Shown: in pieces, positions 3,402-63,646 of the stretch
How positions within the stretch are numbered: the stretch's first letter is position 1
Layout: each line of letters starts with the position of its first letter
Origin: an uncultured Gammaproteobacteria bacterium
Lineage (GTDB): Bacteria; Patescibacteriota; Microgenomatia; JALYQM01
Direction of reading: 5' to 3'
DNA length: 64,000 nucleotides
NCBI GenBank assembly: GCA_964403585.1
Contig: CAYOFQ010000002.1
Coordinates: 5,667-69,666, forward strand
Position numbers and translations under genes: made by a program
The notes under the pieces: generated by a model
What the model was told of the DNA's origin: nothing
What the model saw: only the letters and a program-made list of their open reading frames with translations
Database searches by the model: none

Positions 3402-3914
3402 CTAAGGTTTCGACCGACCGCTGATGCCAGTCGTTTTTTTGACATATTTTAAGCTCATTTTGAGCTTATCCAACGTTACTATATATTGAGCATACTTTCT
3501 CAATAAACTGGAATAATGCCTATTAGGCGTAATTACCTTCAAAAGCTTATTCTTACCAACTAAATGCTCAACTAAACAGTGAAAATCTCCATCATTAGAT
3601 ACAATTATCGCCTTTTCATAGTTTTCAAGCTCAATCATAGTATGTAAAACAAGCTCAGCATCAACATTCCCCTTCACAACTCCAGTTTTCAAAGTTAAGG
3701 TAGGCTTCAAAATGACTATATACCCCATCTCTTGTAAATGTGTATAAAGCTTTTCATTATCAGCTTTAAATCCGATAAAAACAAATGCTTTTTCGATCTT
3801 ATATTTATTTTTTAGATACTGACGAAACTTTCGCCAATCCAATTCCCAACCTTCAGATCGAACTCCTAAATTGAGATTTTGGCTATCTATAAATGCATAA
3901 TTCTCTTTACTCAT
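3402..3914 (-). CDS. NYN/LabA-like (PIN-fold) predicted nuclease inserted in the R-M operon
   Basis: 170 aa. Motifs AFIDSQNL (N-terminal Asp) and DAELVLHTM...IIVSNDGDFHCLVEHL match the NYN-domain acidic core. Its start overlaps the hsdM stop (3911-3914). Confidence 0.65.
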   Translation of the reverse strand: MSKENYAFIDSQNLNLGVRSEGWELDWRKFRQYLKNKYKIEKAFVFIGFKADNEKLYTHLQEMGYIVILKPTLTLKTGVVKGNVDAELVLHTMIELENYEKAIIVSNDGDFHCLVEHLVGKNKLLKVITPNRHYSSLLRKYAQYIVTLDKLKMSLKYVKKTTGISGRSKP

Positions 3915-5704
3915 AACTCAAATCCTAAAGTTTTCAAATTCTTTCGTATCTCTTCTTCTAGTTGTCTCGATTTAGCAAAGTCAGCAGATAAACTCTTCGT
4001 CAACTCCGACATTTTTTCTTCATATGAAATACCGTCATCTTCTTCCTCCGCAATCTCAACATATCTCCCTGGAGTCAACACATAACCATTTTCAGCAATC
4101 TCAGAAAGAGTTACTGATTTACAGAACCCAGCTACGTTCTCATAAGTACCCACTTCACCTCTCCAAGCTCTCACAGTATCAGCAATCTTCTTAATTTGCT
4201 CATCATTAAATATCACTTGCTTCCTCGAAATTTGCTCGAATAGATCCTTGGCATCAATAAACAACGTTTCTCCAGCTCTATTTCGAAACCTTCCAGAAAC
4301 TTTATTCTTAGTCATAAACCACAAAGAAACAGGGAGTGAAACATTATAAAATAGTTTAGGAGGGCAAGCGATAATAATATCAATAAGGTCATCATCGATC
4401 ATCTTCTTACGGATTTCCCCTTCTTTACCACCTACAGCTAATGCCCCGTTAGCCATAACAAAACCAGCCATACCATTGGGAGTTAAATGATGCAAAAAAT
4501 GTTGAATCCACATAAAGTTAGCATTACCGGATGGAGGCGTTCCATATTGAATTCTCGGATCTTTTTCATCTAGTCGATCAGGGTTCCACTCAGCATTAAA
4601 AGGAGGGTTACAAATTTCGAGATCTACCTTTAAGTCGGAAAATTTGTCATCATAATAAGTATTTCCAAGTTCAATCTTTCCATAAATGCCTCTAATCGCT
4701 AAGTTCATTTTACATAACTTAAGAGTAGTTTGATTACTTTCTTGACCATAAATCGCAATCTTTGTAGGGTCTTTATGATGTTCTCGTAAAAATTTACTCG
4801 ACTGAACAAACATACCACCCGATCCACACGCAAAATCCGCAACTCTACTATTTTCAAAAGGTTCAAGCACTTCGACCAAAACCTTAACTATTGAGCGAGC
4901 AGTAAAAAATTCACCTCCACGCTTACCTTCTTCTGAAGCAAACTGACCTAAGAAATATTCGTAAACCCTACCCAATAAATCTTTTTCTTTTTCAATGTCG
5001 TGATCAAAGTTAATTCTAGAAAATATATTTACCAATTCTCCGAGGATGTGACTGTCAAGGCCCACACGAACGTAACTTTTGGGAAGTACCCCAGTAAGCT
5101 GTTCAGGATTATCTTTTTCTATAGCATCCATAGCTTCATCAATGTATTTCGCGATATCACTTGAAGTAGCCTTTGAACGCAAGTATTCCCATCGAGCAAT
5201 TTCTGGTATAAAGAAAATTCCTTTACTTTTATACAAGTCTTTTTCCTCTAGCATTTTCTCTCTTATTTGAGGATCCGGAACATACTCAGGTCTACTAGAA
5301 TCAGCCATAAATTCGACTAATTCATCCCGCCTTTGATAATAAGTGTCGGTAATGTATTTAAGGAATATAAGGCCCAAAACAATATGCTTATAATCGGAGG
5401 CATCAATTGAGCCACGCAGCTTATCTGCAGCGGACCAAAGATCATTCTCAAAATTTATATCTTTGTCCTTATTGATCTCTTGAGTAAGTCTTTTTGCCAT
5501 TTTGGCTGTTTCTAACTGAGCAACACTCACTCTAGATTGAAGTTCACTTGGCAAAGTATCCACTCGAATAAGGTATTTCTTACCTACCTCTTTGATTAGC
5601 ACCTCTCCAGCCTGTATTTTACCTTGTAACTGTTTTTGTATAGCTTGTCGCGACACACCAAGTATCCGTGCAAGGTCATTAATGGTGATATATTTTTCTT
5701 CCAT
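3911..5704 (-). CDS. hsdM: Type I R-M N6-adenine DNA methyltransferase HsdM with extra N-terminal HTH domain
   Basis: 597 aa. HsdM_N-like region NDLWSAADKLRGSIDASDYKHIVLGLIFLKYI, motif I FACGSGGMF and motif IV NPPF (EICNPPFNAEW). The first ~85 aa, ITINDLARILGVSRQAIQKQLQ, form a MerR/excisionase-type helix-turn-helix that canonical HsdM lacks. Confidence 0.9.
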   Translation of the reverse strand: MEEKYITINDLARILGVSRQAIQKQLQGKIQAGEVLIKEVGKKYLIRVDTLPSELQSRVSVAQLETAKMAKRLTQEINKDKDINFENDLWSAADKLRGSIDASDYKHIVLGLIFLKYITDTYYQRRDELVEFMADSSRPEYVPDPQIREKMLEEKDLYKSKGIFFIPEIARWEYLRSKATSSDIAKYIDEAMDAIEKDNPEQLTGVLPKSYVRVGLDSHILGELVNIFSRINFDHDIEKEKDLLGRVYEYFLGQFASEEGKRGGEFFTARSIVKVLVEVLEPFENSRVADFACGSGGMFVQSSKFLREHHKDPTKIAIYGQESNQTTLKLCKMNLAIRGIYGKIELGNTYYDDKFSDLKVDLEICNPPFNAEWNPDRLDEKDPRIQYGTPPSGNANFMWIQHFLHHLTPNGMAGFVMANGALAVGGKEGEIRKKMIDDDLIDIIIACPPKLFYNVSLPVSLWFMTKNKVSGRFRNRAGETLFIDAKDLFEQISRKQVIFNDEQIKKIADTVRAWRGEVGTYENVAGFCKSVTLSEIAENGYVLTPGRYVEIAEEEDDGISYEEKMSELTKSLSADFAKSRQLEEEIRKNLKTLGFEL

Positions 5705-7913: not shown

Positions 7914-8021
7914 TCATTGGGGAAACAGAGAGATAACCGAACCTATAAACATAAAAATGCCAAAAAACAACAGCGACAAGCCGCCAAGCTTTAACTTCTT
8001 ACTCCATACGTTCTTTTTCAT
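7914..8021 (-). CDS. Small membrane peptide (35 aa) MKKNVWSKKLKLGGLSLLFFGIFMFIGSVISLFPQ
   Basis: Not in ORF track (too short). Perfect SD AGGAGGTGA 5 nt before the ATG at 8021, one TM helix, stop TGA at 7914-7916. Confidence 0.35.
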   Translation of the reverse strand: MKKNVWSKKLKLGGLSLLFFGIFMFIGSVISLFPQ

Positions 8022-8403: not shown

Positions 8404-8606
8404 CGCACGCTCCTGTGCTAAAAGGATCCAAAGTCTGCCCAGAAAATGAGCTAAAATGTTAACTCGCTTACTGAGCAGACCTTGAGTAATTATGAAGTGA
8501 ATTCCTGTGTTATCTCTCTGTTAAAGAACTTGCCGAATGGTGAATTCAGCCCGGTAATTATACTACAAAATTAACAAAAGTAAAATACTATAGGATATCA
8601 AAGAAG
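8404..8606 (-). promoter_or_regulatory. Promoter-leader module copy L4 (CCTATAGTA box, TATAAT, leader with TTTAACAGAGAG and AGCTCATTTT motifs)
   Basis: Minus strand reads atatCCTATAGTAttTTACTT-N-gtagTATAAT, then a ~140-nt leader containing cTTTAACAgAGAg. It is homologous to the leaders at 23905, 25181, 29160 and 18404. Confidence 0.45.
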
Positions 8607-18094: not shown

Positions 18095-18404
18095 TATTTT
18101 TCCCTTTCTTAGCTAAGACTGCTTGCAGCGAAAGTGCTACCGCTTTGTCTTAAAAGACCCTTAATACATTCGAATTTAATCAAATGCATAAAGGGTCTTT
18201 CATTACTAAGAAAGAAGATAAACTACATATTTTGAGGAAGATATAAGCTAAAAAGCTAATCCTCGTGTTGTAAAAGAACACTTATGAGCTCAATTGAGCT
18301 CAATCTTAATTACATTCATAAGTTCAATTTGAGCTTAGAGTATAACTAAGATATGTTTATTATATCACAAAATAGGGAAAAAGTAAATTACTATAGGTTA
18401 TTTG
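18095..18404 (-). promoter_or_regulatory. Promoter-leader module copy L5 (CCTATAGTA box, TATAAT, perfect GAGCTCAATTGAGCTC palindrome, TTTTACAACACGAGG box, structured 3' leader)
   Basis: Minus strand reads aaCCTATAGTAatTTACTT...gaTATAAT, then a leader with the 16-bp perfect palindrome at 18286-18301 and two strong hairpins before the RBS. It begins 1 nt after the tRNA 3' end. Confidence 0.45.
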
Positions 18405-18681
18405 CTCCCCGACTAGGATTCGAACCTAGAACCTTCTCGTTACATGAACCCCACAAGTTTCCTAGTGGCATGGACTATCTCATCACCATACTTAAAAAGC
18501 ACAGGTGTCAGGCGTATAGTCTCTGAACCTTCAATACGCAAGAAGCGTAAAGCTTGGCTGCGGATTACCATAATCTTTCGATCGTAGGCTTCCCGACAGT
18601 TAACCCAATTTTCACTTCAGGATTTCTCCAGAAGGCTGCATCAATCTACAGCGAGCCGCTCTACCGTTGAGCTATCAGGGA
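18405..18681 (-). tRNA. tRNA-Asn(GUU) interrupted by a group I intron (exons 18648-18681 and 18405-18442)
   Basis: 5' half UCCCUGA-UA-GCUCAACGGUAGAGC-G-GCUCG-CUGU. 3' half UAACGAGA-AGGUU-CUAGGUUCGAAUCCUAG-UCGGGGA-G. The acceptor stems pair (UCCCUGA/UCGGGGA). Spliced anticodon loop is CUGUUAA, class I variable loop, discriminator G73, no encoded CCA. Confidence 0.65.
18443..18647 (-). ncRNA. Group I intron (IC3-like, Azoarcus/cyanobacterial tRNA-intron type), 205 nt, no ORF
   Basis: 5' exon ends in U. IGS GCAG pairs with the exon CUGU. P2 is CUUC-U-GGA-GAAA-UCC-U-GAAG. The core shows extended identity to the Azoarcus pre-tRNA-Ile intron as recalled from memory (UAUGGUAAUCCGCAGCCAAGCUU...UUGAAGGUUCAGAGACUAUACGCC...CACCU). 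The intron ends with omega-G (CAUG|UAACGAG). Confidence 0.65.
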
Positions 18682-23904: not shown

Positions 23905-24268
23905 CCTATAGTATTTGACTATTGGATATTTAGGAGTATAATAGATAGTGCCTCCAAAAGGCTATTTACCTCAACTGAGGTAGACAAGCTCAAAAGAGGC
24001 GCGAGCTCAAGCTCAACTTGAGTTCACAGTACTTTAACAAGAGAACATGCAAAATAAGCTAAAACACTTCCCCAACCCGGTAACCTACAGGATTTTGAGC
24101 TCAATTGAGCTAGATTGAACTCAGTATCCTGTAGTTTGCTCGGGTAATCAAGGAGGTGTAAACACCTACCCGAAAGTGACAAATCGTCACCGCAAATTGC
24201 AATCGAGGTCGTATGCCTCAGGATGACTTATTCAGTAGTAGCCGTTTTAAAACAACAAGGACAACACA
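23905..24268 (+). promoter_or_regulatory. Promoter-leader module copy L1 (CCTATAGTA-TTGACT-N16-TATAAT, about 320-nt leader)
   Basis: Box 23905-23913, -35 at 23915-23920, -10 at 23937-23942. The leader has hairpin GCCTccaaaAGGC, stem CUCAAGcucaaCUUGAG, the TTTAACAAGAGAAC box (~24013-24026) and GAGCTCAATTGAGCTa (24097-24112). RBS AAGGA before the ATG. Confidence 0.5.
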
Positions 24269-24958
24269 ATGCCAACCCAACTCCGCTACCTGCTCGCCGC
24301 CATCTTGCTCGCGCTCGTCGTCGTTCTGCCCGCGGCTGCACAACCCTCAACACCCCCCGCAAACCCAGAGCCGACCACGATCGAGCTGAAACCGGCCTCG
24401 AAGACCATCACCGTAACCGTTCCCGCCAACGCAACGTTCGAGCAACGCCATGCCCTTATTAAGGCTGCCGCGCCTCAGAACGAGCTCGTTCGGATCCACC
24501 TCGTGATCGACAAGACGCTGGCTCCCAAGCCCGCCATCACGACCGCCGAGGCCAACCCGATCGCTGCATCCCACGCTGTCAGCTACACTATGCAGTGGAA
24601 CCGGCCGGTGTTCAACAACTACAGCAGTGCTACGCCTGAAGACTTGTCGCCCACGCTCACGTTCAATGTGTACACCGATACCGTAGGGCTCTCGCTCTAC
24701 AGCTGGATCAACTACAAGAACATCGAGCGCGGGGAGAGTGAATTTTACGTCGATTTCGACTTCGTTAACGTCACTGTCACCGGATCCGGCTCAATCCAGC
24801 TACATCTACCCACATATACCCCCAAGGCAGGATATGAGCAGGACGCTCAGTTCAATGCGTATCTCGGCGAGTACACCACTAACGGCTGGCTGAAGCAATC
24901 AACCATCCACTTCTACTCGCACGTCAAGCACATTTACTCGCCCGTCGCCCTTAGTTAG
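24269..24958 (+). CDS. Secreted hypothetical protein (GC-rich, about 60% GC)
   Basis: 229 aa. Signal peptide MPTQLRYLLAAILLALVVVLPAAA. Its composition is strongly atypical for this genome. Confidence 0.6.
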   Translation: MPTQLRYLLAAILLALVVVLPAAAQPSTPPANPEPTTIELKPASKTITVTVPANATFEQRHALIKAAAPQNELVRIHLVIDKTLAPKPAITTAEANPIAASHAVSYTMQWNRPVFNNYSSATPEDLSPTLTFNVYTDTVGLSLYSWINYKNIERGESEFYVDFDFVNVTVTGSGSIQLHLPTYTPKAGYEQDAQFNAYLGEYTTNGWLKQSTIHFYSHVKHIYSPVALS

Positions 24959-24977
24959 CAGCTTATCCGAGGCAGTT

Positions 24978-25006
24978 GAGCCACGCACACACGCTTACGC
25001 GTGGCT
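24978..25006 (+). terminator. GC-rich hairpin GAGCCACGC-N11-GCGTGGCTC (terminator-like, no T-run)
   Basis: Perfect 9-bp stem 20 nt after the stop of 24269-24958. Confidence 0.4.
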
Positions 25007-25180
25007 CAGCTCCTCGCAGGAGAAACCAAATGGAGTTTACTAAGCCCTTGAGTCTTGAACTCATTCGTAGCGTATTTCCCTATTTAGCCTCAACCTGTAC
25101 ATGTTCTCTTGTCCCATTTTAACCTCAAATAAGCTCAAATCTTATCCAAGCTCAATTTTAGCCTAAATATAACGAAATAA

Positions 25181-25671
25181 TAACCTATAGTATTGACATA
25201 TAGGACAAAATATGGTAATATACAAGATGCCTCACCGAGGCTACCAGTTCAAATAGAACCGTCTAGACTCAGTTGAGGCTAGGAAGAGAGCGCAAGCTCA
25301 ACTTCCGCACCTTAACAAGAGTGCTTAGCAACAAGTCAGAGTTACACGCTCGGCTAGCACAAATGAGCTCACGCTCATCCGCTATCCAATGGGCAACTAC
25401 CTCTGAAATAGCAACATTTTTTGAAACCAAATCCTCTTTCTCCCATTACAGCGGAATTCTGGACCTCATAATTGAGATTCGGTATTCCGCTGCAATGAAG
25501 ATTGAGTAAACTCCTTAGTTTGGAGAGCTCCTTGAACGCAAGTTCAAGAACTTCGTTATAGATCCAGCGGCCCGAGACCCTTCTCAACGACGCAAGTCGA
25601 AAAGATATAGGTCATATTTCCGCGCGGACTTTTCGACAAGTTTACAAGCAACCGAACAAGGAGCAAACACA
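25181..25671 (+). promoter_or_regulatory. Promoter-leader module copy L2 (CCTATAGTA-TTGACA-N17-TGgTAATAT, about 445-nt leader)
   Basis: -35 at 25193-25198 and extended -10 at 25213-25221. The leader has hairpin GCCTCaccGAGGC, GAGCGCAAGCTCAACTT and the CCTTAACAAGAGTGC box (~25300-25314). Confidence 0.5.
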
Positions 25672-26514
25672 ATGGAAACCCTCAACCGCAACCGCACCAA
25701 GCTCATCATCGCCGCCATCGCCATCATTTTCGCCATCTCTGCGCTTCCGCTGGCTGACTATTACTTCGGTACCAAGGTCACACCAATGACCAGCTACCAG
25801 CAGCCGACCGCCGCCCCGACCGCGGCCGCCCAGCCGACTAACGATCCCGTTGGTACCCCCAGCGAGAACGACCACAGCCTGCTGAAGGTGGCCTTCGACG
25901 ACGAGCCGATCACCGTGATCACCCCGACCGAGACCATCTCCTACGAGTTGGATCTCCTCCGGCTCTTCAACTACCAGCACGGTGACGTGTTCACAGGCAA
26001 TGATGACATCAGCGTTTCAATGGAAACTTTGGACGGCGACCCTGCCACAACAATCGTGTTCGACACCAGCTCAGACCAGCTCGGCGCCACCGACCTCGAC
26101 AAGCACACCACCACCTTCGGCAAAGGCCTCGCCATCAACAAGAGCGACCACTCGATCCACGCTGACGGCGGTGCTGTGATCACCTTCACCCTGACGACCT
26201 CGACCTTCGTGTCTGACGTTCAGGTTGTCGACCTGGATCGCGGCGCTATGCGAGTTGTTGGCCTAGATGAGAAAGGCAATGAAGTTTTCCGGCAGAGCAT
26301 GAGCCCCGACGCTCAGTTGATCAAGACGATGGCTGTCAACACGACGGTCAAAACGCTGATCATCCGGGTCAAGGACAGCTTTGTGTTGTTGCCACACTTC
26401 CGTGCCTTCTCCTCCGGCGAGCTGCGCGCCTTCTGGCTGCCGAAAACCCTCGGTGAGTGCACCAGCACCGCCGAAGAGGCCGCGCAATACCCCGATAAGC
26501 CGAGCTGCAACTAG
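25672..26514 (+). CDS. Membrane-anchored hypothetical protein (GC-rich)
   Basis: 280 aa. N-terminal TM LIIAAIAIIFAISALPLA, then a Pro/Ala/Thr linker and a beta-rich domain. About 60% GC. Confidence 0.55.
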   Translation: METLNRNRTKLIIAAIAIIFAISALPLADYYFGTKVTPMTSYQQPTAAPTAAAQPTNDPVGTPSENDHSLLKVAFDDEPITVITPTETISYELDLLRLFNYQHGDVFTGNDDISVSMETLDGDPATTIVFDTSSDQLGATDLDKHTTTFGKGLAINKSDHSIHADGGAVITFTLTTSTFVSDVQVVDLDRGAMRVVGLDEKGNEVFRQSMSPDAQLIKTMAVNTTVKTLIIRVKDSFVLLPHFRAFSSGELRAFWLPKTLGECTSTAEEAAQYPDKPSCN

Positions 26515-26751
26515 CAGTTCACTCGCCCTTCGGACTAACCGCCGCCAAGATGGAGCACGCGCTCACCACCACGCCGAGTGCGTGTTCCATCTACAATTGA
26601 TTTCAAAATGTTACGAAAAAATAGAAAGGAAGAAAGACAATGAAGAATCTAAAGCGTTTTAGCTTTACCATTTTTCCCCCGTCCGCCCGAATTTTCTAGC
26701 TATCTGCACTCTTGTTACCGATTTTACTTATCCCCAATTAACGTATATTTA

Positions 26752-28896
26752 TTACCTACCAAATTTAGCATTCTTTAGTGCTAACGGAACATATTGTTTA
26801 TACTCGTCATTCTGAGGTTGGCCACCGCTGCTTGGAGTAGTAACCATATCCATCAATTGCGCCAATATTCCCAAGGTATAATCAACAACCTCCGCTTGAT
26901 CATAGACTCCCTGATCACCTTTTAACGGCGCATTAGGATTACGTGCATTCGAAAAATCTGGTGCTCGAACCGAACCATTCTCAGGGTACGTCATCGCATC
27001 ACCTTGCCCATTCTTAATTCGACCTCGCCCCCATAGACGAAGCAACACTTCATCCATAACACTTTTATTAATTGCCTGATGATCTAATGCCAATAAATGC
27101 CCCAATTCGTGCATTAAGGAGTGAAAAGTTTCCATACAACTCCGAGTTACAACCAAAATACCGTATGGACGCATCGCATCTGCCGAGTCAAACCCCTTAG
27201 CCATAATATAACTATTTCCGCACGATGCGTTATCCTCAACCACAATAACAATAATATCTGCACCCAACTCTTTTCGTTTACGCTGCACATTTTCATCTTG
27301 TTGTACTTTATCGCGAATTTGCTGCAATGATTCCTTTGTTTCATCAAAACTAAGCGTACCTGGACGATCTACTGCGCCGAGTGAATGAACACGACCATTA
27401 ATTCCGTCACGGGCAAAGCCCTCGTTAATTTCAGCAGTAGCAATATTAAAACCACCCAAAAAACCCGGATGCGTTGCTGATACCTTAGCACTTGGAATAA
27501 CAGCCCACTGAATTATACGATCATTAGTTACACCAAACTCAGGATTAAAGGAAGTATCCACTCCCTGAGGAACAGATTGAACCTGCGGAGATCCGGAAGC
27601 TGGAGGAATATCTGCATCAATTTCAGGTTCCAGTTGTCGTGGTGGACGCTCTTCAACAGCAACAACATCTGTTTGGCCGGGGACACCTTCCAAAATGTAG
27701 GTAGTGCCATCTGCAGCCACAACTTTTCCTGCATTAATCGAACCGTCGGGATTAGTATCAATGTAGGCCGCCGTGCCTTCAACACCATTGACAGTACCCG
27801 TTAATATACCGGTACCTGTTAATGCAGCAGTTGAGGTTAAAGGTTCCGAGATTCGGGTACGCAACTCTTCCCCAAATGGATTTATTGCTACAGTACCATC
27901 CTTAAGAGCATTTTCATCGACTTGCACAATAGCTCTCCGTGTTGCTGCAGAACTAAGTGGAGGCAAAGCTCGACTCACAGTATTTAATACATCACCCGAA
28001 ACATCTTGGAACAGCGGCGGATATACATAATCCAACTGCTTATTAACCGCAAAAACTCCTGCAACTATAGACAGTACTAAGGTTGCAGAAATGATAGGTA
28101 TTGTCCACGATCGAATCTTCTCTCTAATTCTATTGGACTCATCAGATTCAAAAACAGCATGCTCAAATGCATAACGCAAATAGACACGCTCCTTAAAGTC
28201 CTCCTCTGATTCACCCGGCATGCGCTGTATGTACTCTGGCTCAGTTAAGTTCCCTCGTCCTTTTTTATTTTTTGACGCATTAGACCAAGACTCTTTAACT
28301 AAAGCAGCAACTATATCTCGAGAATCCTTTGGCTCAAGCAATCTCCCTTCTTTTACAGCTTTAATTTCATTCTTAGAATACTTAAGTCGAGTCTTTCCAT
28401 CTAATTTAATTCGCTCTTCATCCTGTTCAAGGAAATCTTCTTCAACAAAAGAAAACAGTTCTAATGCCATACGTTTTCTTATCTCTTGTAACATGAAACG
28501 CTCTTCATCTTTTAAAGTCTGGGTACTGTGTCCATCGACCAATTCGGACCGAACTTCGGGATCCAGTGCTACTGCTGGTCGAGAAACATTATCGATCCAA
28601 CCCGCCAGCGCGACATAAGATTCAACTACTTCCTTAAAGCTAGATAGCTTCTCCTCAGCGAATAAATCTATTTCAAATCTACCGAAGTTATTAAGTACAA
28701 AACCGGAGTCAGTTACCTGTACAAACATACCAACTCGATCTAATATTTGAGAAATACTTTCTTGATTATCTATGTGTGAATTCCGTTCAACATAGTTACG
28801 ACCTACCCGGTCCACATACTCAAGTGTACGCGTCCCAAGATGCTTCGCTGATTCGGCTATACGGTGAGGTACTCCTCCACTATTTTCGACAGACAT
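26752..28896 (-). CDS. Membrane-anchored zinc metalloprotease, metzincin-like (HELGHLLALDH)
   Basis: The track ORF runs to 28995. The likely start is MSVENSGG at 28896, with TATAAT 9 nt upstream. About 300-aa cytoplasmic N-domain, TM IPIISATLVLSIVAGVFAV, and an extracellular domain with HExxHxxAxxH plus a downstream SVMD Met-turn candidate. Confidence 0.7.
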   Translation of the reverse strand: MSVENSGGVPHRIAESAKHLGTRTLEYVDRVGRNYVERNSHIDNQESISQILDRVGMFVQVTDSGFVLNNFGRFEIDLFAEEKLSSFKEVVESYVALAGWIDNVSRPAVALDPEVRSELVDGHSTQTLKDEERFMLQEIRKRMALELFSFVEEDFLEQDEERIKLDGKTRLKYSKNEIKAVKEGRLLEPKDSRDIVAALVKESWSNASKNKKGRGNLTEPEYIQRMPGESEEDFKERVYLRYAFEHAVFESDESNRIREKIRSWTIPIISATLVLSIVAGVFAVNKQLDYVYPPLFQDVSGDVLNTVSRALPPLSSAATRRAIVQVDENALKDGTVAINPFGEELRTRISEPLTSTAALTGTGILTGTVNGVEGTAAYIDTNPDGSINAGKVVAADGTTYILEGVPGQTDVVAVEERPPRQLEPEIDADIPPASGSPQVQSVPQGVDTSFNPEFGVTNDRIIQWAVIPSAKVSATHPGFLGGFNIATAEINEGFARDGINGRVHSLGAVDRPGTLSFDETKESLQQIRDKVQQDENVQRKRKELGADIIVIVVEDNASCGNSYIMAKGFDSADAMRPYGILVVTRSCMETFHSLMHELGHLLALDHQAINKSVMDEVLLRLWGRGRIKNGQGDAMTYPENGSVRAPDFSNARNPNAPLKGDQGVYDQAEVVDYTLGILAQLMDMVTTPSSGGQPQNDEYKQYVPLALKNAKFGR

Positions 28897-29159
28897 AGGC
28901 CGGTGAATTATAACATTTACTATAAGATAAGTAAATGATCTACATATAACCTGACGAAAAAGAGATATTAATCGGACAAAGGGTTGACAATTCACTAAAT
29001 GTATAGTAGAGTTTATAGGTCATAATACCCTAACTCAAGGGCCGCTTCACTACTGCTGCTCCAGCCTTAACAAGGCGAATCAGCAATTTTGGTAATACCC
29101 GAATAAAATACGAAACTAATAAATCCGAAGTGAAGACAGGAAAACGCCTTTTGATAAGA

Positions 29160-29676
29160 CCTATAGTGTTGACTATTATGACAAAATGTGGTATTATGAT
29201 GCTACCTTAAATGAGCTTAGGCTCAAAATGAGTTAAAAAGCGCTTTTAAGGTAAGTACATTTACAAGAGAGCAATAGCAAAAGTCTACAGTAGTCTGGAT
29301 GCCTACGGTACCGGTTTACCCGCCCCGTTAAGCAATATCCTCCCGCCTGTAGCATTCCGATACTAAACAATTCCCTTCACTACCTACGAACAGTGGAATT
29401 CTGCGAATAAGTAATCTTGTTCCCGGGATTCCACTGCTCAGTAGGAAAAATAGTGAAAGGAGGATGTTCCTACAACGACCACGTACGTCGTGAGCAGTTT
29501 ACATAGCAGGCTGGTCAAGTCCTATCGACATGGGAATGTCCAATCCGACAAGGTAGAGTGTGGCAAGTATCCACATCTATCAGCGTTGGTGCGGAATATA
29601 CCATGAAAGCAGGAGGAGATCTTCTGTCCGCCCGTCGTATCTCATATCGGCCGATAGAACTGAAGGATGTGCAACC
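29160..29676 (+). promoter_or_regulatory. Promoter-leader module copy L3 (CCTATAGTG-TTGACT-N17-TGgTATTAT, about 470-nt leader)
   Basis: -35 at 29169-29174 and extended -10 at 29189-29197. The leader has AAAAGCGCUUUU, the CATTTACAAGAGAGC box (~29245-29260), a 9-bp inverted repeat CAGTGGAAT/ATTCCACTG (29392-29440) and RBS GAAGGA. Confidence 0.5.
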
Positions 29677-30939
29677 ATGCGTAACAAACGCAACAACCGT
29701 AACCCTTTGCGGAACCCGTGGTTCCGCCGGACGAGCATCGCGATTCTCGTCGCGTTGGCGCTCGCCAACACCTTTCAGTGGGTGACTCTGGCGTCAGCTG
29801 CCGGGCACTTTAACTTTGAGGTGATCCGCAGGGATGAGAAGGGCTGGGAAGTTCGCGTCACCAACCCCGGGTGCCCCGAGGGTTGGAACTACAAGACGAA
29901 GAACTTGAGCGGCTCGTGGGAAGACGGGGATAACGGGGAAACAGCGCGCGCCTGGTGCGAGCGTGAAGTTCCCGATCCCAAGGATCCGACCAAGACCATC
30001 AAGGAGAAGTGCTGGGAGAGTTCGAAGTGGGTGGATAACCCCAACACGAAATCGCCCACGCGCGACCCCAACGTGCCCACCCGGACGCCGCGCCCCACGG
30101 TCGACTGCCCGCTCTGCACCGAAACGCCGACGGAGGAGGAGAAGACCGCCACGCCGACCGAGGAGGAGAAGACCGCCACGCCGACCGAGGTGGAAAAAAC
30201 CACCACGGCCACACCTCCCGGCGGCGGCGACACGGCTACCCCCCAGCGTACGGCGACCAGCACTTCCACAAGCACAAGCAACACGGCCACGCCGACCCGC
30301 CGCCCGCCCGGTGGTGGTGACAACCCGACCGCAACGACCATCGTGACGACCTACCTAGACGCCCGCGTCCTCGCGGCTTGCCGCGCGGATACCGGCCTGG
30401 GGGCTGACGTCGACCTCTATGTGTCGCCCAACCTGGCGAAAGCCTATAACCTCGGCGACAGCGTCAGCATCTACGCCCAGTACAGCGGCGGCACCGAGAT
30501 CGTGGTCGTGACGAAAGTTGGCTCAACGGACGACGGCTCGATCCACTACCGCGGTACGCTGCAGAGCGCGCGCAACGAGGTTCACTTCCTCAGCGTGGAG
30601 TTCGACAAGGTGTACAGCGTCAATGTCATCCCGTTCTGCATCACCGCCAGCACCGCCACCGTCGGCACCAGCGCCACCAAGACCCGCACGCCGGTCATTC
30701 CCCGCCAGGAAGGCTCAATCACACCCAACGCCGGCTTCGCAGCCGACGTTGACATGGCAGCGCTCCTGGCCGAAAACCCCACGATCGGGATGGTCGCCGT
30801 GAACGTGTTCGATCCCGAACACGCCTACGACCTGGCCTACCTGGCCGGAGCATTGATCAGCGCGCTGCTGGCAATCCTCCTCACCTGGTACGACCGCCAG
30901 CTCGCCGCCGCCAAGCCCCGCCGCCGCGTGACCGCCTAG
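29677..30939 (+). CDS. Secreted Thr/Pro-rich repeat protein with C-terminal hydrophobic anchor (GC-rich, about 62% GC)
   Basis: The track ORF starts at 29560. The likely start is MRNKRNNRNPLRNPWFRRTSIAILVALALA (signal/anchor). It contains TPTEEEKTA repeats. The C-terminus is a TM segment plus KPRRRVTA. Confidence 0.6.
   Translation: MRNKRNNRNPLRNPWFRRTSIAILVALALANTFQWVTLASAAGHFNFEVIRRDEKGWEVRVTNPGCPEGWNYKTKNLSGSWEDGDNGETARAWCEREVPDPKDPTKTIKEKCWESSKWVDNPNTKSPTRDPNVPTRTPRPTVDCPLCTETPTEEEKTATPTEEEKTATPTEVEKTTTATPPGGGDTATPQRTATSTSTSTSNTATPTRRPPGGGDNPTATTIVTTYLDARVLAACRADTGLGADVDLYVSPNLAKAYNLGDSVSIYAQYSGGTEIVVVTKVGSTDDGSIHYRGTLQSARNEVHFLSVEFDKVYSVNVIPFCITASTATVGTSATKTRTPVIPRQEGSITPNAGFAADVDMAALLAENPTIGMVAVNVFDPEHAYDLAYLAGALISALLAILLTWYDRQLAAAKPRRRVTA
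30124..30205 (+). repeat. Tandem 27-bp coding repeat x3 (ACGCCGACCGAGGAGGAGAAGACCGCC) encoding TPTEEEKTA
   Basis: Direct tandem copies read in the sequence; the third copy is diverged. Confidence 0.7.
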
Positions 30940-31243
30940 TATCGGAAACCACTCACATCGGACGTCGTAAGATTTCCATAGCCGCAAGGTGATGTGAGTG
31001 TTATCCTGGCTTCCAGCCGAGTAAAACTGATGCCGTCTTCGAGACGTCATAAAGATACTCGGCTGGGACCAGGCGCTAGAAGCAATAGTAGAGAGGAATT
31101 CCTCAAGTCGATTGGGGTAATCCCAAACTTCTTGACCTTCTCGCACCGCTATTGCTCTCTGTTTCCGCTTGATTTTAAGTTCAAGAATTTGAAGTCAGAC
31201 AGAAACAAATTAAAAGTAAATGTGTTAAAATAAAGTTACTATA

Positions 31244-42089: not shown

Positions 42090-42875
42090 ATGTCTCATGA
42101 ACTAGAAATCATACTCCGGGCAATCCAAGAAGCTTCAAAAATCCACCGCAAGTATTTTCAGGACCCTAATCTTACACATACGCCAAAAGGATTATCAGAC
42201 TCAGTTTCTCAGGCAGATCTCGAATCAGAAAAGATAATTCTAGACATACTTACTAAAGAATTCCCTGATTATTCCTTTTTCTCTGAAGAATCCGGACTCT
42301 CGGAAAATAAATCGAACAATCAGTGGATCATCGATCCAATGGACGGATCAAGTAACTTCAAGCTTGGTTTAACAGAAATCGGTATAACTATAGCCTTGCT
42401 ATCAGAAGGCCAAATAATAGCCGGAGCAGTTGCCGCGCCTTTACTAAACATTCTTGCTTATGCCGAAACAGGCGGGGGAACGTATCTTAATGGCACTAAA
42501 ATTACTCCTGACTCAACACCTCAAAGTAACATCATCTCCTTAATTGCCGGATACGCGGCTGTAGAAAGCCAAACCAAGGTTTGGACTGGATTACAAGGCA
42601 AAGTCAAACGGATTCTAATGCAATGGGCACCAACCATAGATTCCTTACTATTGCTTTCCGGTAAAACCGATGCCTTAATATCGTTGGACAACGAAATAGA
42701 AGATCAAGCCGCAGCGCTACTACTCTTCAAAGAGGCCGGATTCACTACCCGCACACTGGATAATAAAGACTATGATCTGAACGAATTTTCACTCCTATTA
42801 CCCAAAATGGTCATCTCCCGTAATGAGGATATAAGTAACAGATTAATAGCTGAAGTTAATCAAAGCCTGCAATGA
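42090..42875 (+). CDS. Inositol monophosphatase family protein
   Basis: 261 aa. IMPase motif WIIDPMDGSSNF and FFSEESG. Confidence 0.8.
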   Translation: MSHELEIILRAIQEASKIHRKYFQDPNLTHTPKGLSDSVSQADLESEKIILDILTKEFPDYSFFSEESGLSENKSNNQWIIDPMDGSSNFKLGLTEIGITIALLSEGQIIAGAVAAPLLNILAYAETGGGTYLNGTKITPDSTPQSNIISLIAGYAAVESQTKVWTGLQGKVKRILMQWAPTIDSLLLLSGKTDALISLDNEIEDQAAALLLFKEAGFTTRTLDNKDYDLNEFSLLLPKMVISRNEDISNRLIAEVNQSLQ

Positions 42876-54998: not shown

Positions 54999-55021
54999 AA
55001 AAACATCAAAAGAAAATGATG
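54999..55021 (-). terminator. Intrinsic terminator immediately 3' of ssrA (CAUCA-uuuucuuu-UGAUG-UUUUU)
   Basis: 5-bp stem plus a U5 run on the minus strand. A second overlapping hairpin gives it bidirectional character. Confidence 0.5.
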
Positions 55022-55455
55022 TGGAGATGCCGATCTATGAAATCGGGTCTGGAATCTGTAATTAAAAACATCTACATAGCATAGTCGGTACTTATATCTC
55101 GTACCACAACGATCCTACCGACAGGAGAAGTGATACAAAGGTCAAAGTCTTAAAGGATTACAGCGACCACCCCGAATCCTCGCATACAATCTTTGTTTAC
55201 GCCCTACTCCGCTCGATTGTAAAATCAGAATAGAACGTCCATTGTTTAGCTAAAGAAAAGTTTAGCCAAATGCAGGATAGCTAACGCCTGCTACAGCGTT
55301 ACCCAAGCCGAAGTTTGGGAACTTTGCAGCGATTTTGTCAGCTATTGATGTAGAAGAATCTGCATCTATATTTTAGTCCCGTTTTTACGACTCTTGAGAC
55401 CATCGTCGGCTATGCAGTTTTTAAAGAGCACATCCCATCGAAACAACACATCCCC
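55022..55455 (-). ncRNA. ssrA: tmRNA (SsrA)
   Basis: 5' end GGGGAUGUGUUGUUUCGAUGGGAUG matches the canonical GGGGcUGauucuggaUUCGAcGGGAu. 3' end ...CCGAU-UUCAUAG-AUCGG-CAUCUCC-A forms a T-arm and an acceptor strand pairing with the 5' GGGGAUG. A candidate tag ORF begins after the UAG at ...AAUAGCUGAC... and ends at the UAA inside hairpin GCUAAAcuuuucUUUAGC. It is divergent from smpB. Confidence 0.6.
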
Positions 55456-55910
55456 ATGAGATTTTATGTTAAGACTAGTGCTTAACAAGACTGAATTATA
55501 ACACATTTTAAGCCATTTTTCCAGTAAAATAAACCTGCCAAACCGCTAATAGCAGAGCAAAGCTTTAAACGCAAGCAGAGCGAAGCCTTAATCGTATCAC
55601 TGGCAAGCTCGACAAGAAGGGTATAATTACCCTGTTGACATACATACACTAATGATATAACATATAAATATACTTACAGTATAACAGTCATCACTCGCTG
55701 TAAGTGTTCCTTAAAAATTCCTTTTCTGATTTCGTCGCAGACCCCGGGATCATATAAAAAGGGCACAATACATGTCCTGTCAGTATCTCATTATAGGTGC
55801 CGCTAAATTGGATAAGGAATTTATGAATAAACCCGTCTTTGAAACATAAGGCGGGTTTATTTTTATGCAAAGCCTTTCTCCCTTTACCCCTACACTGGTA
55901 TAATACGCTC

Positions 55911-56354
55911 ATGAAATCACTCGTCTACAACAAACGAGCCAAATTCGACTATTTTCTGGAAGACAAATACGAGGCAGGTATGGTACTTACCGGAGGAGAA
56001 GTCAAATCGATCCGGGAAGGCCGTGCAAGCCTCCAGGATAGCTTTGTGCGGGTTAAAAATGGTGAGGCTTACCTATTGAATGCCTTTATTAATCCCTACA
56101 GCTTCGCCGATAACAGAAACCTCGATCCACGCCGGGAACGCAAACTGTTACTCCATAAAAAACAAATCAACGAACTGATGGCTAAAAGTAATGGCAAAAA
56201 TACCACCATAGTTCCCGTTTCTTTCTACAACAAGAACAACACCATTAAAGTAGAGATCGCCATTGGTAAAGGTAAGAAACAATACGATAAACGCGCCGCT
56301 ATCAAGAAACGCGACTTAGATAAAAAAATCCAGCAGGAAATGAGGATTAGATAG
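55911..56354 (+). CDS. smpB: SsrA-binding protein SmpB
   Basis: The track ORF starts at 55839. The likely start is MKSLVYNKRAKFDYFLEDKYEAGMVLTGGEVKS at 55911, with TATAAT 8 nt upstream (leaderless). C-terminal basic tail KKQYDKRAAIKKRDLDKK. Confidence 0.9.
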   Translation: MKSLVYNKRAKFDYFLEDKYEAGMVLTGGEVKSIREGRASLQDSFVRVKNGEAYLLNAFINPYSFADNRNLDPRRERKLLLHKKQINELMAKSNGKNTTIVPVSFYNKNNTIKVEIAIGKGKKQYDKRAAIKKRDLDKKIQQEMRIR

Positions 56355-61363: not shown

Positions 61364-61786
61364 ATGAAGAAATGTTTAATTCTCATCCTCTTTTGTTTCT
61401 CATTTTTTGTTGCCCAGAATAGTATAGTTTTTGCCGCACCAACAGTCGAATGCAGCGCCACAATCAAGTGTCCTGCAGGTAAGTCGTGTGTTGGCTCATT
61501 TTGTGTTCAAGCTGCTCCCAGCCTACGCCCTGAATTCCAACAGGAAGGAGCCTTAACCTTTGCCGTCTCTCGATTCTTTACCTATTTATTGCCGGTTATC
61601 GGTATTCTCGGTTTCCTGCTTTTCCTCTGGTCGGGCTTCCAATTCCTGATGAGTAAAGGCGATCCTAAAGCCCTTGCCGCAGCTCAAGCGAGATTAACCT
61701 ATACCGCTATCGGATTGCTAATAATTTTCCTGGCATATAGTATTACAGCATACACAACCGGATTATTTGGATTGGTAACACCATGA
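61364..61786 (+). CDS. TrbC/VirB2-like pilin-family small membrane protein, paralog 1 of 5
   Basis: 140 aa. Signal peptide and Cys-rich short ectodomain. Two hydrophobic helices joined by the conserved turn WSGFQFLMSKGDPKALAAAQARLTYTAIG. Confidence 0.5.
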   Translation: MKKCLILILFCFSFFVAQNSIVFAAPTVECSATIKCPAGKSCVGSFCVQAAPSLRPEFQQEGALTFAVSRFFTYLLPVIGILGFLLFLWSGFQFLMSKGDPKALAAAQARLTYTAIGLLIIFLAYSITAYTTGLFGLVTP

Positions 61787-62205
61787 AAAAAGTATTTAAG
61801 AAAAGCTTTATCATCTCAATATTTGTATGTATCGGACTCTTGGGTATCAAAAATATTCAAGCTGCCAGCTCCGTTCCGGTTGCTACCTGCCAACCGATCC
61901 CGGGACAGGGAGTCTCCATTCAGGATTGTGCGAACGCTAACTTCCCAAAGGGTGCGCCCACTACGATCGGTGGTTGGGTTTCTACCATCTTAGGCCAGGT
62001 ATATACCATAGCGCTTGTCGTCATGCTCGCCTATTTAATCTGGGGTTCATATCGTTTTATGATGGCCGCCGGAGACCCCAAAGCCATTGCCGCAGCCAGA
62101 GCCCATCTGACGTGGGCAATCGCTGGTATGATCATCGTGTTTGTGGCATATTGGATATATCGTGTCATCAACGAACTGGCATTCTATGTATTCCAGGACA
62201 TTTAA
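61783..62205 (+). CDS. TrbC/VirB2-like pilin-family small membrane protein, paralog 2
   Basis: 140 aa. WGSYRFMMAAGDPKAIAAARAHLTWAIAG. ATGA overlap with paralog 1. Confidence 0.5.
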   Translation: MKKVFKKSFIISIFVCIGLLGIKNIQAASSVPVATCQPIPGQGVSIQDCANANFPKGAPTTIGGWVSTILGQVYTIALVVMLAYLIWGSYRFMMAAGDPKAIAAARAHLTWAIAGMIIVFVAYWIYRVINELAFYVFQDI

Positions 62206-62222
62206 TGGTACTATAAAAACAT

Positions 62223-62849
62223 ATGTATATATATAAATTGTTCTTAGATGTAATCGCAGCCGTAGCACCCCCTGAACCGGGAAGCAATACCCCAAGCAAT
62301 GAAGCCGGAAGCATTGTCGGACGAATTTTCCCTCCATTTCCCGGATTTAGCGGATCAATCAGTTTAACCAGATATTTTCTTACCTTATTCAATACAGCCC
62401 TCTATGTCGGCCTCGTCGCTGCTCTTATATATATAGTCTACGGAGCAATCAAATGGATTACCTCGGGCGGAGATATCAAAGCCCTCGCCGCAGCTCGCAA
62501 TACCATTACCCACGCTATAATGGGTGTTATCCTTCTTTCACTCGGCTTAGTCATGAGTCAGGTTGTCGGAACATTTGTCTCTCCCACACTCGACGACACT
62601 AATTCAAAGGCAGTATATATCTGCGGCTATGGCAGCCGCAAAGAACAATGCGATTTAAGTGGCATTCCACCATCAGAATGTTATCAGTCTATTACCTGTC
62701 ACCAAGTCTACTCACGTATTTTAAATGAAAAGGCCGACAAACTACAAATGAGCTACCCAAGCCAATACTGCTTCAGTGCCCAGGAATGCGACAAGGGCTG
62801 TAAACAAAATGAATTAATTAACACATATAAATATTGCCAGCCAATCTAA
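62223..62849 (+). CDS. TrbC/VirB2-like pilin-family protein, paralog 3, with extra Cys-rich C-terminal domain
   Basis: 208 aa. YGAIKWITSGGDIKALAAARNTITHAIMG, plus an about 80-aa C-terminal domain with 8 Cys. Confidence 0.45.
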   Translation: MYIYKLFLDVIAAVAPPEPGSNTPSNEAGSIVGRIFPPFPGFSGSISLTRYFLTLFNTALYVGLVAALIYIVYGAIKWITSGGDIKALAAARNTITHAIMGVILLSLGLVMSQVVGTFVSPTLDDTNSKAVYICGYGSRKEQCDLSGIPPSECYQSITCHQVYSRILNEKADKLQMSYPSQYCFSAQECDKGCKQNELINTYKYCQPI

Positions 62850-62853
62850 GAAT

Positions 62854-63204
62854 ATGAATAGTAAAAAATTACTTATCTTTTTCATACTGCTCACGGGGTT
62901 AATACCTACCCGGCTGGCTGAAGCGGCCGGGCTGGGAACCTTAAGTCCACCGACTGGTACAACTCTAGATCTGAATGCCAACGTTATCCGTTTTGTTAAT
63001 TTTGCTATCGGCAGCGGTACGGTTGTTTTTCTGTACATGTTTGTCCGTGGAGCGATTGAATGGACTATTTCCGAGGGAGATAAAATGAGGCTCGAAACCG
63101 CACGAAACCGCATGACCCAAGCCGCTATCGGACTACTGCTTTTAGGTACCTGTTTCGCAATCGCATCAATTGTGAGATCCTTAACCTATTCACGGGGATT
63201 TTAA
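62854..63204 (+). CDS. TrbC/VirB2-like pilin-family small membrane protein, paralog 4
   Basis: 116 aa. VRGAIEWTISEGDKMRLETARNRMTQAAIG. Confidence 0.45.
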   Translation: MNSKKLLIFFILLTGLIPTRLAEAAGLGTLSPPTGTTLDLNANVIRFVNFAIGSGTVVFLYMFVRGAIEWTISEGDKMRLETARNRMTQAAIGLLLLGTCFAIASIVRSLTYSRGF

Positions 63205-63262
63205 ACAATTTTGGAAAAAATATGGTATAATAAGTTGTCTTGAAGGGAGGTGAATTTAAAAC

Positions 63263-63646
63263 ATGTTCAAAAAAGCATATGCAAAATTAGTTGGTGTTTC
63301 ATCAGCAGCAACAGCGGTATTATCTTTGGCAACGGCTACATACGCTCAGGTAACCTTATCGTTCCCTACTACCAGCCAATACGGTTTCAACGATTTGCCA
63401 ACAGCTCTTAGCGGAGTCTTAAACCTCGTTTTCTTCTTTGCGTTAATCTTAGTTTTGATCTACCTCGTTTGGGGTGGTATCCAGTGGATCACATCCGGTG
63501 GAGACAAAGCAGGAACTGAAGCAGCTCGAGGTAAGATCACTGGCGCTATCGTCGGTATCATTATCGTTGCAGTAGCATTCGCAATCTTCCGATTGCTCAT
63601 GACATTCGTCGGTGCTACAAACTCTATCGTTATCACCAAACAATAA
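63263..63646 (+). CDS. TrbC/VirB2-like pilin-family small membrane protein, paralog 5
   Basis: 127 aa. SD GGAGG. WGGIQWITSGGDKAGTEAARGKITGAIVG. Followed by a strong terminator. Confidence 0.5.
   Translation: MFKKAYAKLVGVSSAATAVLSLATATYAQVTLSFPTTSQYGFNDLPTALSGVLNLVFFFALILVLIYLVWGGIQWITSGGDKAGTEAARGKITGAIVGIIIVAVAFAIFRLLMTFVGATNSIVITKQ

Follow-up and report, generated by a model that had tools for sequence, protein, structure and literature searches.

Five transcription units of an uncultured bacterium combine a boxA-like leader element with a leader-trailer helix around a protein-coding gene, possibly on the plan of rRNA operons

A 64,000-nucleotide (nt) stretch of contig CAYOFQ010000002.1 (assembly GCA_964403585.1, forward-strand positions 5,667 to 69,666), hereafter the window, was analysed, with positions counted from its first letter. 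Five loci of the window, named P1 to P5, share one arrangement: a promoter of a common type, a leader with hairpins and a boxA-like element, a protein-coding open reading frame (ORF, here called the cargo), and a trailer that is complementary to a strand of the leader at the box. The interpretation favoured here, with some confidence and no more, is that they are transcription units on the plan of ribosomal RNA (rrn) operons, each enclosing a protein-coding gene. The evidence supports at least a dedicated expression module, shared by the five units, with a functional RNA leader. An earlier sequence-only reading of the window had noticed the five-copy module and a second box within the transcript, but not the complement of each such box in the trailer. 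That reading left the second box unplaced; to judge from its sequence, the box is a boxA-like element.

The motif CCTATAGTR occurs five times in the window, compared with 0.50 occurrences expected, and none of 100 shuffles reached five. It abuts the -35 hexamer at a distance of 0-1 nt in all five copies, as had been described; the -35 is TTGAC(T/A) or TTTACT, and a -10 of TATAAT, TAATAT or TATTAT lies 16-17 base pairs (bp) past it. On the plus strand, the P1 promoter (23905..23942) consists of CCTATAGTA at 23905-23913, TTGACT at 23915-23920 and TATAAT at 23937-23942; the P2 promoter (25184..25221) of CCTATAGTA at 25184-25192, TTGACA at 25193-25198 and TAATAT at 25216-25221; and the P3 promoter (29160..29197) of CCTATAGTG at 29160-29168, TTGACT at 29169-29174 and TATTAT at 29192-29197, the -10 being accompanied by TG in P2 and P3. 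On the minus strand, the P4 module extends from promoter to leader strand over 8509..8594, with CCTATAGTA at 8594-8586, TTTACT at 8584-8579 and TATAAT at 8562-8557, and the P5 module occupies 18260..18397, with CCTATAGTA at 18397-18389, TTTACT at 18387-18382 and a -10 that ends at 18359. The start positions first proposed for the modules are exact for 23905 and 29160 and off by 3-12 nt for 8606, 18404 and 25181. An extended -10, asserted for every copy, was found as TG in three of the four modules scanned; P4 lay outside the scan, and no clear TG is seen there by eye. Candidate sixth modules at 3729 and 33629/33774 were rejected as chance matches within coding DNA, and the CTTATAGTA of a neighbouring protease promoter was rejected as a member because it sits within the spacer.

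The boxA consensus GYTCTTTAANA is the NusB/NusE site of rRNA operons, and a double mutation of C4 and T6 abolishes SuhB recruitment at the boxA of Escherichia coli suhB (PMC5725501). The box of the five units (CTTTAACAAGAG and variants) lies 53-112 nt past the -35 in all copies, reads G-Y-N-C-N-T-T-(A/T)-A-C and has both C4 and T6 in all five; CTTTAACAA is the rrn boxA core. The P4 box GTTCTTTAACA (8529-8519, minus strand) is an exact match to the consensus, the P1 box GTACTTTAACA (24029-24039) and the P5 box GTTCTTTTACA (18279-18269, minus strand) have one mismatch each, the P2 box GCACCTTAACA (25307-25317) has two, and the P3 box GTACATTTACA (29255-29265) has three. The stem-loop that had been reported in each leader is present in all five, the last hairpin ending 2-4 nt 5′ of the box, and this order of hairpin and box is the boxB-boxA order of rrn leaders. 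In P1, the boxB-like hairpin GAGCTCAAG/CTTGAGTTC (24003..24025) stands directly 5′ of the box and is retained, with a changed loop, in a related genome (L007). The corresponding hairpins are GGAAG/CTTCC at 25282-25306 in P2 (25282..25324 with box and leader strand), 29204-29251 in P3 (29204..29278 with box and leader strand), 8550-8532 on the minus strand in P4, where a G-U pair is included, and 18302-18285 on the minus strand in P5, where GAGCTCAATTGAGCTC is among the hairpins. The heptamers GAGCTCA and AGCTCAA also cluster in the leaders, for the most part within the pre-box hairpin, as well as 5′ of the P2 promoter (23987-24105, 25132-25155, 25295-25370 and, on the minus strand, 18285-18335), and often form the palindrome TGAGCTCA or GAGCTCAATTGAGCTC; of the 16 AGCTCAA occurrences on the plus strand of the window, seven fall within 23987-25295.

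In each unit, a leader strand of 12-14 nt is perfectly complementary to a trailer located 141-208 nt past the stop codon. The leader strand of P1 (24037-24049, ACAAGAGAACATG) overlaps the box, the two together spanning 24029..24049, and pairs over 13 nt with the trailer at 25100-25112 (CATGTTCTCTTGT). The pairs of the other units are 25313-25324 (TAACAAGAGTGC) with 26706-26717 (GCACTCTTGTTA) in P2, of 12 nt; 29266-29278 (AGAGAGCAATAGC) with 31148-31160 (GCTATTGCTCTCT) in P3, of 13 nt; and, on the minus strand, 8522-8509 with 7937-7924 (GTTATCTCTCTGTT) in P4, of 14 nt, and 18272-18260 with 17526-17514 (TCCTCGTGTTGTA) in P5, of 13 nt. On the 3′ side of the trailer is a moderately U-rich stretch (CCCATTTTA after P1, CCGATTTTA after P2, and similar sequences after the others), weak in P3 and P5; the P5 trailer is then followed by a canonical terminator-like hairpin and T-run at 17395-17376 on the minus strand. 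Complementarity between cognate leaders and trailers extends over 12-14 nt, compared with 5-10 nt for non-cognate combinations, and the cognate length was reached by none of 1000 trailer shuffles in each unit. The window contains 22 inverted pairs of 12 nt or more with a spacing of 250-3500 nt, and a boxA-like 5′ arm is found in these five and in no other. A cognate trailer accompanies five of the eight boxA-like matches of the window, versus none of 27 in a control consisting of both strands of 451 kb of unrelated viral contigs.

In an alignment of the units anchored at the box, the helix begins at position 7-12 and runs to about position 20-24, leaving positions 1-6 unpaired. In all nine units compared, these first six positions are conserved although they are not part of the helix, the sequence of the helix differs in all nine, and each is matched by its own trailer; the leader-trailer helix is supported by covariation among paralogues. 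Perfect helix cores measure 12-16 nt, and the extended duplexes comprise about 17-20 pairs with gaps. In unconstrained minimum free energy (MFE) folds of the complete predicted transcripts (0.65-2 kb), the helix is present in P1-P4.

The leaders are about 150-475 nt long. Those of P2 and P3 fold far better than shuffled sequences (z scores of -7.0 and -6.9), and none of the substitutions in the long P2 hairpin, one double and four single, disrupts its pairing. Together with the covariation of the leader-trailer pairing between copies, this supports a functional RNA leader, a regulatory RNA family having been one suggestion of the sequence-only reading; its proposal to consult Rfam gave no match for the leaders, either with gathering thresholds or with the cutoff relaxed to E<=1, and the enclosed ORF regions have none even at E<=1. 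G-U pairs, which are specific to one strand, are found both in the pre-box hairpins and in those that follow the stop codon. One of the latter, the GC-rich P1 hairpin TGAGCCACGC...GCGTGGCTCA (24977..25008), which has no U-tract, is kept in L007 and in another related contig (L080), with a G-U pair in L080. A short ORF of 19-35 codons, preceded by a Shine-Dalgarno (SD) sequence, was observed between the 3′ hairpin and the trailer in P1 (25029-25121), P2 (26640-26699), P4 (8021-7914, minus strand) and P5 (17608-17543, minus strand), ending no more than about 20 nt from the trailer or running through it. The P4 example (7914..8021) encodes a hydrophobic peptide of 35 residues and contains the trailer GTTATCTCTCTGTT in its 3′ end. 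The SD sequence and ATG of the short ORFs are kept in L080 and in a third related contig (L081), and P3 has only a doubtful GTG candidate. Translation of these short ORFs could compete with formation of the leader-trailer helix.

The units were followed into relatives. L007, a metagenome-assembled genome with a DnaG protein 76% identical to that of the window, has the P1 unit in the same place, divergent from dnaG; the P1 promoter core is identical, and the core of promoter, hairpin and box as a whole is essentially invariant, with a cargo protein only 30-33% identical. L080 retains the tandem of P1 and P2 cargos and the P2 promoter; for its P2 leader, mean column identity reaches 86% (blastn identity 78%), versus 47-49% for the cargo protein, and the P2 trailer fits its own changed leader. 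In L081, protein identity of the P2 cargo allele is 31-35% and DNA identity of its flanks 87-88%, and the contig terminates in the same P2 trailer; L076, with a 48% identical allele of the P3 cargo, ends in the P3 trailer. The cargo ORFs are far more divergent than their flanks.

One metagenome scan used a pattern of promoter and box that did not include the bracket. About ten contigs showed the full anatomy of spaced -10, hairpin, box, long leader and ORF with signal peptide, and no rRNA was found downstream of the matches. Cognate trailers of 16, 15 and 16 nt were found in L046, L051 and L072, which are unrelated contigs, and in each case none of 200 shuffles reached this length; because the bracket was absent from the search pattern, these three contigs are independent confirmations. 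In L051 and L072, a T-run directly follows the trailer. As a negative control, a scan of viral contigs with the promoter pattern yielded 24 loci, none of them with the box. In a contig from a different organism of 52% GC (L050:1992-2600), a small membrane ORF and fusA, encoding EF-G, are preceded by a CCTATAGT promoter and a box-like motif; no trailer was found there, and its membership is uncertain.

In six consecutive sequencing runs (SRR8857866-71), 11 short contigs that are 100% identical to the window carry only the P1 or the P2 cargo. These contigs begin just past the large leader hairpin (24128-24151 in P1, 25486-25496 in P2), apart from two P2 contigs that begin instead at 25571 and 25624, and they stop 0-10 nt past the trailer, five Logan contigs at 25111-25115 in P1 and six at 26720-26727 in P2. 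Contigs of divergent alleles likewise stop at the trailer. Short genes of the same genome other than cargos are absent from the six runs and are present in four other runs, where the contigs cross the units uninterrupted. Most simply, the six runs would be RNA libraries in which these cargo mRNAs are abundant and end at the trailer. Several Logan contigs of these runs were also observed to have unrelated or fold-back terminal sequence, an artefact of the sort that occurs with structured RNA templates (odd ends at L085:1-127, L002:1-30, L086:1-9 and L090:1103-1131).

The cargos are SD-preceded ORFs with conserved protein homologues. P1 (24269..24958) encodes 229 amino acids with an N-terminus resembling a signal peptide, and has a GC content at third codon positions (GC3) of 0.75; P2 (25672..26514) encodes 280 amino acids with an N-terminal membrane anchor (GC3 0.80); and P3 (29677..30939) encodes 420 amino acids (GC3 0.84) that include a signal sequence, a repeat rich in Thr and Pro, and an anchor at the C-terminus, with 27-nt repeats at 30118-30198. 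On the minus strand, P4 (8098..8403) encodes a lipoprotein-like protein of 101 amino acids with a LAAC lipobox (GC3 0.54), and P5 (17714..18094) encodes an orphan of 126 amino acids without a signal sequence (GC3 0.61). The description of four of the five cargos as secreted or membrane proteins agrees with the hydrophobic N-terminus or lipobox that is seen by eye in their translations. The cargos are not paralogues of one another. No Pfam family was identified for any of them, a sub-threshold match to BACON being the sole result; an AlphaFold model of the P2 cargo, built from four sequences, had a predicted local distance difference test score (pLDDT) of 43 and was not used. No homologue of the P1 cargo was found by word-index search, although its orthologues in L007 and L080 are 30-36% identical; for the P5 cargo none was found by homology search. 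The P3 cargo has one homologue, 48% identical, and the P2 cargo has three among 1.84 billion representatives.

The cargos are compositionally atypical, as had been claimed, with a GC content of 0.53-0.65 and GC3 of 0.54-0.84, compared with GC3 of 0.24-0.56 in 29 other ORFs, those of P4 and P5 being only mildly so. Their codons are enriched for both C- and G-endings, unlike those of neighbours on either strand. The 5′ untranslated region (UTR) had been described as progressively GC-richer toward the gene; in fact the leaders have about the GC content of the genome (0.32-0.46), and the jump in GC coincides with the ORF. Horizontal acquisition of foreign genes, which had been suggested along with a search for donors of high GC, is not supported by the results: as far as sequence searches can tell, the cargos are orphans restricted to the lineage, with no sign of high-GC donor taxa. 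GC3 is 0.72-0.78 in alleles from L076, L080, L081 and L083 that are only 31-47% identical, and 0.48 in the L007 cargo versus 0.25-0.35 in its neighbours. High GC3 is evidently maintained and not a relic of transfer, because it persists in alleles whose synonymous sites must be saturated. Candidate causes are selection for mRNA stability and GC-biased conversion during allele exchange through the conserved flanks. Third codon positions were also observed to have a strong strand asymmetry across the window (C3 of 0.17-0.42 and G3 of 0.05-0.17 in plus-strand genes, C3 of 0.06-0.16 and G3 of 0.18-0.43 in minus-strand genes), with GC skew negative over nearly all 64 kb.

On the plan of an rrn operon, each unit might work as follows. 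The sigma-70/SigA-type promoter, with its lineage-specific CCTATAGT box flush against the -35, would be strong and would have a binding partner at that box. The transcript opens with at least one hairpin before the boxA-like element, and NusB and NusE (S10) may bind this element, by analogy with rrn leaders, CRISPR leaders and suhB. With NusA, NusG and SuhB, they would convert RNA polymerase to a processive, Rho-resistant form able to read through the 150-475 nt of hairpin-rich untranslated leader, the ORF and the 3′ region of about 200 nt; in CRISPR arrays, boxA protects transcripts that are long and untranslated (PMC7665894). The leader strand consists of the 3′ half of the box and the next 8-10 nt. 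In rRNA operons, the transcription antitermination complex (rrnTAC) tethers leader to trailer (PMC10250234; bioRxiv 10.64898/2026.03.17.712431), and in the same manner a leader tethered at the RNA exit channel might pair with the trailer as it emerges, so that the entire mRNA is enclosed by the helix. Since this helix takes up part of the box and precedes the U-rich stretch, it probably ends the antiterminated state, and it may define or protect the 3′ end by termination, processing or both. Sealing of the mRNA ends would favour high and stable expression of envelope and secreted proteins.

A more specific version, put forward tentatively, is that the units are split, tethered devices for the termination and maturation of mRNAs. 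NusB and NusE on the 5′ half of the box would hold the leader at the exit channel of the antiterminating polymerase until the unit-specific trailer paired with it and stripped the box from NusB/NusE; pairing and the U-rich tract together would either stop transcription or create a processing site, yielding an mRNA with sealed ends. Ribosomes translating the short SD-preceded ORFs at or through the trailer could gate the pairing step.

Several observations weigh against an rrn-like plan. Helices of 12-17 bp are much shorter than the 25-40 bp of rrn operons and are short for RNase III; the P5 helix is absent from the MFE fold of its whole transcript; no convincing trailer was found within 9 kb of the P1 unit of L007, which has the promoter and box; and a 13-nt pseudo-bracket that was rejected in L041 arose by chance inside coding sequence. 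With one mismatch allowed, the boxA 11-mer is not enriched in the window (12 matches versus 13.8 expected), so the argument for boxA rests on position and context and not on counts. The P2 and P3 boxes match the consensus poorly, and this consensus is gamma-proteobacterial and may not be that of the host, which has a short SigA of the Bacillota type; no rRNA gene was found in the window or the loci fetched, and the boxes were scored against the rrn consensus of other organisms. Conservation of the box could in part simply reflect the helix, and the ends of the run contigs could be break points of the assembly graph.

The strongest rival, possible though judged unlikely, accepts the pairing of 5′ and 3′ UTRs and dispenses with Nus factors: the shared features would be a strong promoter and a closure of the mRNA by base pairing, with effects on stability or translation, the resemblance to boxA being coincidental or due to a different, lineage-specific RNA-binding protein. 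All evidence for the helix applies equally to it, the poor boxA matches of P2 and P3 are in its favour, and mRNA ends pair in the absence of Nus factors in Staphylococcus aureus icaR (PMC3868564) and Bacillus subtilis hbs (PMC5737220). Against it, box positions 1-6, unpaired and conserved in nine units, imply a recognition element that is single-stranded, and they are the same as the first half of boxA, in which the critical C4 and T6 lie; moreover, a hairpin and then a box directly after a strong promoter is the rrn layout, and boxA is known to be needed in long untranslated leaders. If the arms were instead inverted repeats of DNA, a recombinase could flip each ORF with respect to a fixed promoter to produce phase variation, and the 12-14 bp repeats flanking each ORF with the promoter outside, as well as the hypervariability of surface or secreted cargos, would suit such invertible segments. 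This is improbable in view of the lack of any recombinase or invertase domain among the approximately 50 ORFs of the window, the divergence of the arms between units beyond a core of about 7 nt, which leaves no common recombinase site, the asymmetry of the flanks (5′ half of boxA on one side, U-rich stretch on the other), the single orientation found in all contigs from at least ten samples, and the strand-specific G-U pairs of the associated hairpins.

The sequence-only reading had raised the idea of an attI-like platform for the capture and expression of horizontally acquired GC-rich genes; this, or a mobile cassette with terminal inverted repeats, is now very improbable. Codon usage of the cargos unlike that of neighbours on either strand, ORFs far more divergent than their flanks as if alleles had been swapped between conserved arms, and contigs that break at unit boundaries would all be expected of it. 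No integrase, recombinase or transposase domain was found among the approximately 50 ORFs, however, and no attC-like family was seen by eye, a formal search not having been made; each unit owns a promoter; the P1 unit is syntenic next to dnaG in a relative as distant as 76% DnaG identity, and the P1-P2 tandem is kept in another; the cargo families are confined to the lineage; and high GC3 in alleles 31-47% identical is an equilibrium property, not a mark of recent import. Readings as integron, inverton or transposon are opposed alike by the lack of a recombinase, the synteny, the unit-specific arms and the single orientation. That the five copies are merely ordinary strong promoters sharing a regulator site, with all other similarities due to chance, is scarcely credible. 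Although CCTATAGT-TTGAC promoters without a box are also present in unrelated phage contigs, the box is found in five of five copies, as is a unit-specific trailer of a length that no shuffle in 1000 attained, and the arrangement is kept in orthologues and recurs independently in metagenome contigs.

The window is otherwise an ordinary bacterial chromosome of about 43% GC, not 38% as had been estimated, and includes dnaG-sigA, tRNAs, tmRNA, smpB, a type I restriction-modification system, a P450 and a phytase. The metzincin-like protease reported next to P3 was confirmed by a match to Reprolysin_3; its gene appears nearly leaderless (28899-28935, minus strand), with TTTACT-17-TATAAT at 28935-28907 and a likely ATG about 8 nt past the -10, the listed GTG start at 28995 being probably wrong. 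The P5 promoter begins directly after a tRNA (18400-18681, minus strand; anticodon GUU for asparagine, read by eye) that has a group I intron in its anticodon loop (18443-18647; RF00028, 79.7 bits); the orthologous tRNA of L007 and L008 has no intron, as shown by a split of the blastn alignment at 18648/18442. A gene of the SuhB/inositol-monophosphatase family (42090-42875, plus strand) directly follows a tRNA-Ser, with no boxA-like motif upstream of it in the window; in E. coli, SuhB belongs to the rrn antitermination complex. The genes nusB, nusE, nusG and rho fall outside the window and were not encountered. A tmRNA of 437 nt (55019-55455, minus strand), detected by Rfam and not by ARAGORN, has an unusually long tag that ends in ...SYPAFG by eye, and adjoins smpB (55839-56354, plus strand). 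The SigA of 378 amino acids aligns over its full length to SigA of Bacillota, its best match in the PDB being 7ckq_F, and three small ORFs in 61364-63646 (plus strand) match PF18895 (T4SS_pilin); both features argue against affiliation with the Gammaproteobacteria.

Antitermination by boxA and Nus factors is seen as a hallmark of rRNA operons, as are leader-trailer helices. Only recently has boxA been found elsewhere, in suhB and CRISPR arrays (PMC5725501, PMC7665894), and no paper describing boxA and a leader-trailer helix around protein-coding genes was found in the library searched. If the rrn-like plan is correct, the RNA looping of rRNA operons has been copied in an uncultured lineage onto highly expressed, hypervariable, GC3-rich genes of surface proteins; looping by antitermination complexes would then be a mechanism of general use for setting and protecting the ends of transcripts, and the units would be a natural design for a portable high-expression cassette with built-in insulation. 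The tethering model is open to simple compensatory mutants of leader and trailer. The units also point to a link between the bracket, the extreme local enrichment of GC3 and the hypervariability of surface proteins.

Among known systems, the integron resembles these units in that one type of promoter drives diverse, unrelated, compositionally odd ORFs; it differs in having intI and attI, which are absent here, where every gene comes with a promoter and inheritance of the syntenic loci is vertical. The intrinsic terminator is similar in that a helix is followed by a U-rich tract where contigs, and possibly transcripts, end, with a canonical T-run directly after the trailer in L051 and L072, but its arms are 3-8 nt apart, compared with 0.55-1.9 kb here, a distance at which the 5′ arm would need to be tethered to the polymerase. 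In S. aureus icaR, B. subtilis hbs and hok, mRNA ends likewise pair across the coding region and affect stability or translation; those are single-gene cases that pair the SD region or cleavage sites, whereas the present units are a multicopy family with a shared promoter and a boxA-like anchor, in which the SD is not paired. The suhB 5′ UTR and CRISPR leaders share with them a boxA-like motif in a non-rRNA leader with long untranslated RNA that can be exposed to Rho, but have no leader-trailer helix; the suhB boxA is less than 50 nt from the start codon and represses, whereas the boxes here are 100-400 nt upstream of the start codon, in five copies within 64 kb with one type of promoter. The closest likeness is to the rrn leader (boxB-boxA-boxC and the 16S/23S helix), in which a strong promoter is similarly followed by a hairpin and boxA, the 5′ half of boxA is single-stranded, and a strand near boxA pairs with a trailer beyond the product, the pairing being kept while the sequence varies. 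The present units differ in enclosing the mRNA of a secreted or membrane protein instead of a structural RNA, in a helix of 12-17 bp instead of 25-40 bp that overlaps boxA instead of lying, like rrn boxC, 18-19 nt downstream, and in the U-rich stretch after the trailer. Helix length and type of product place them outside the definition of rrn operons, and a role of Nus factors is proposed by analogy; the units belong to no family described so far.

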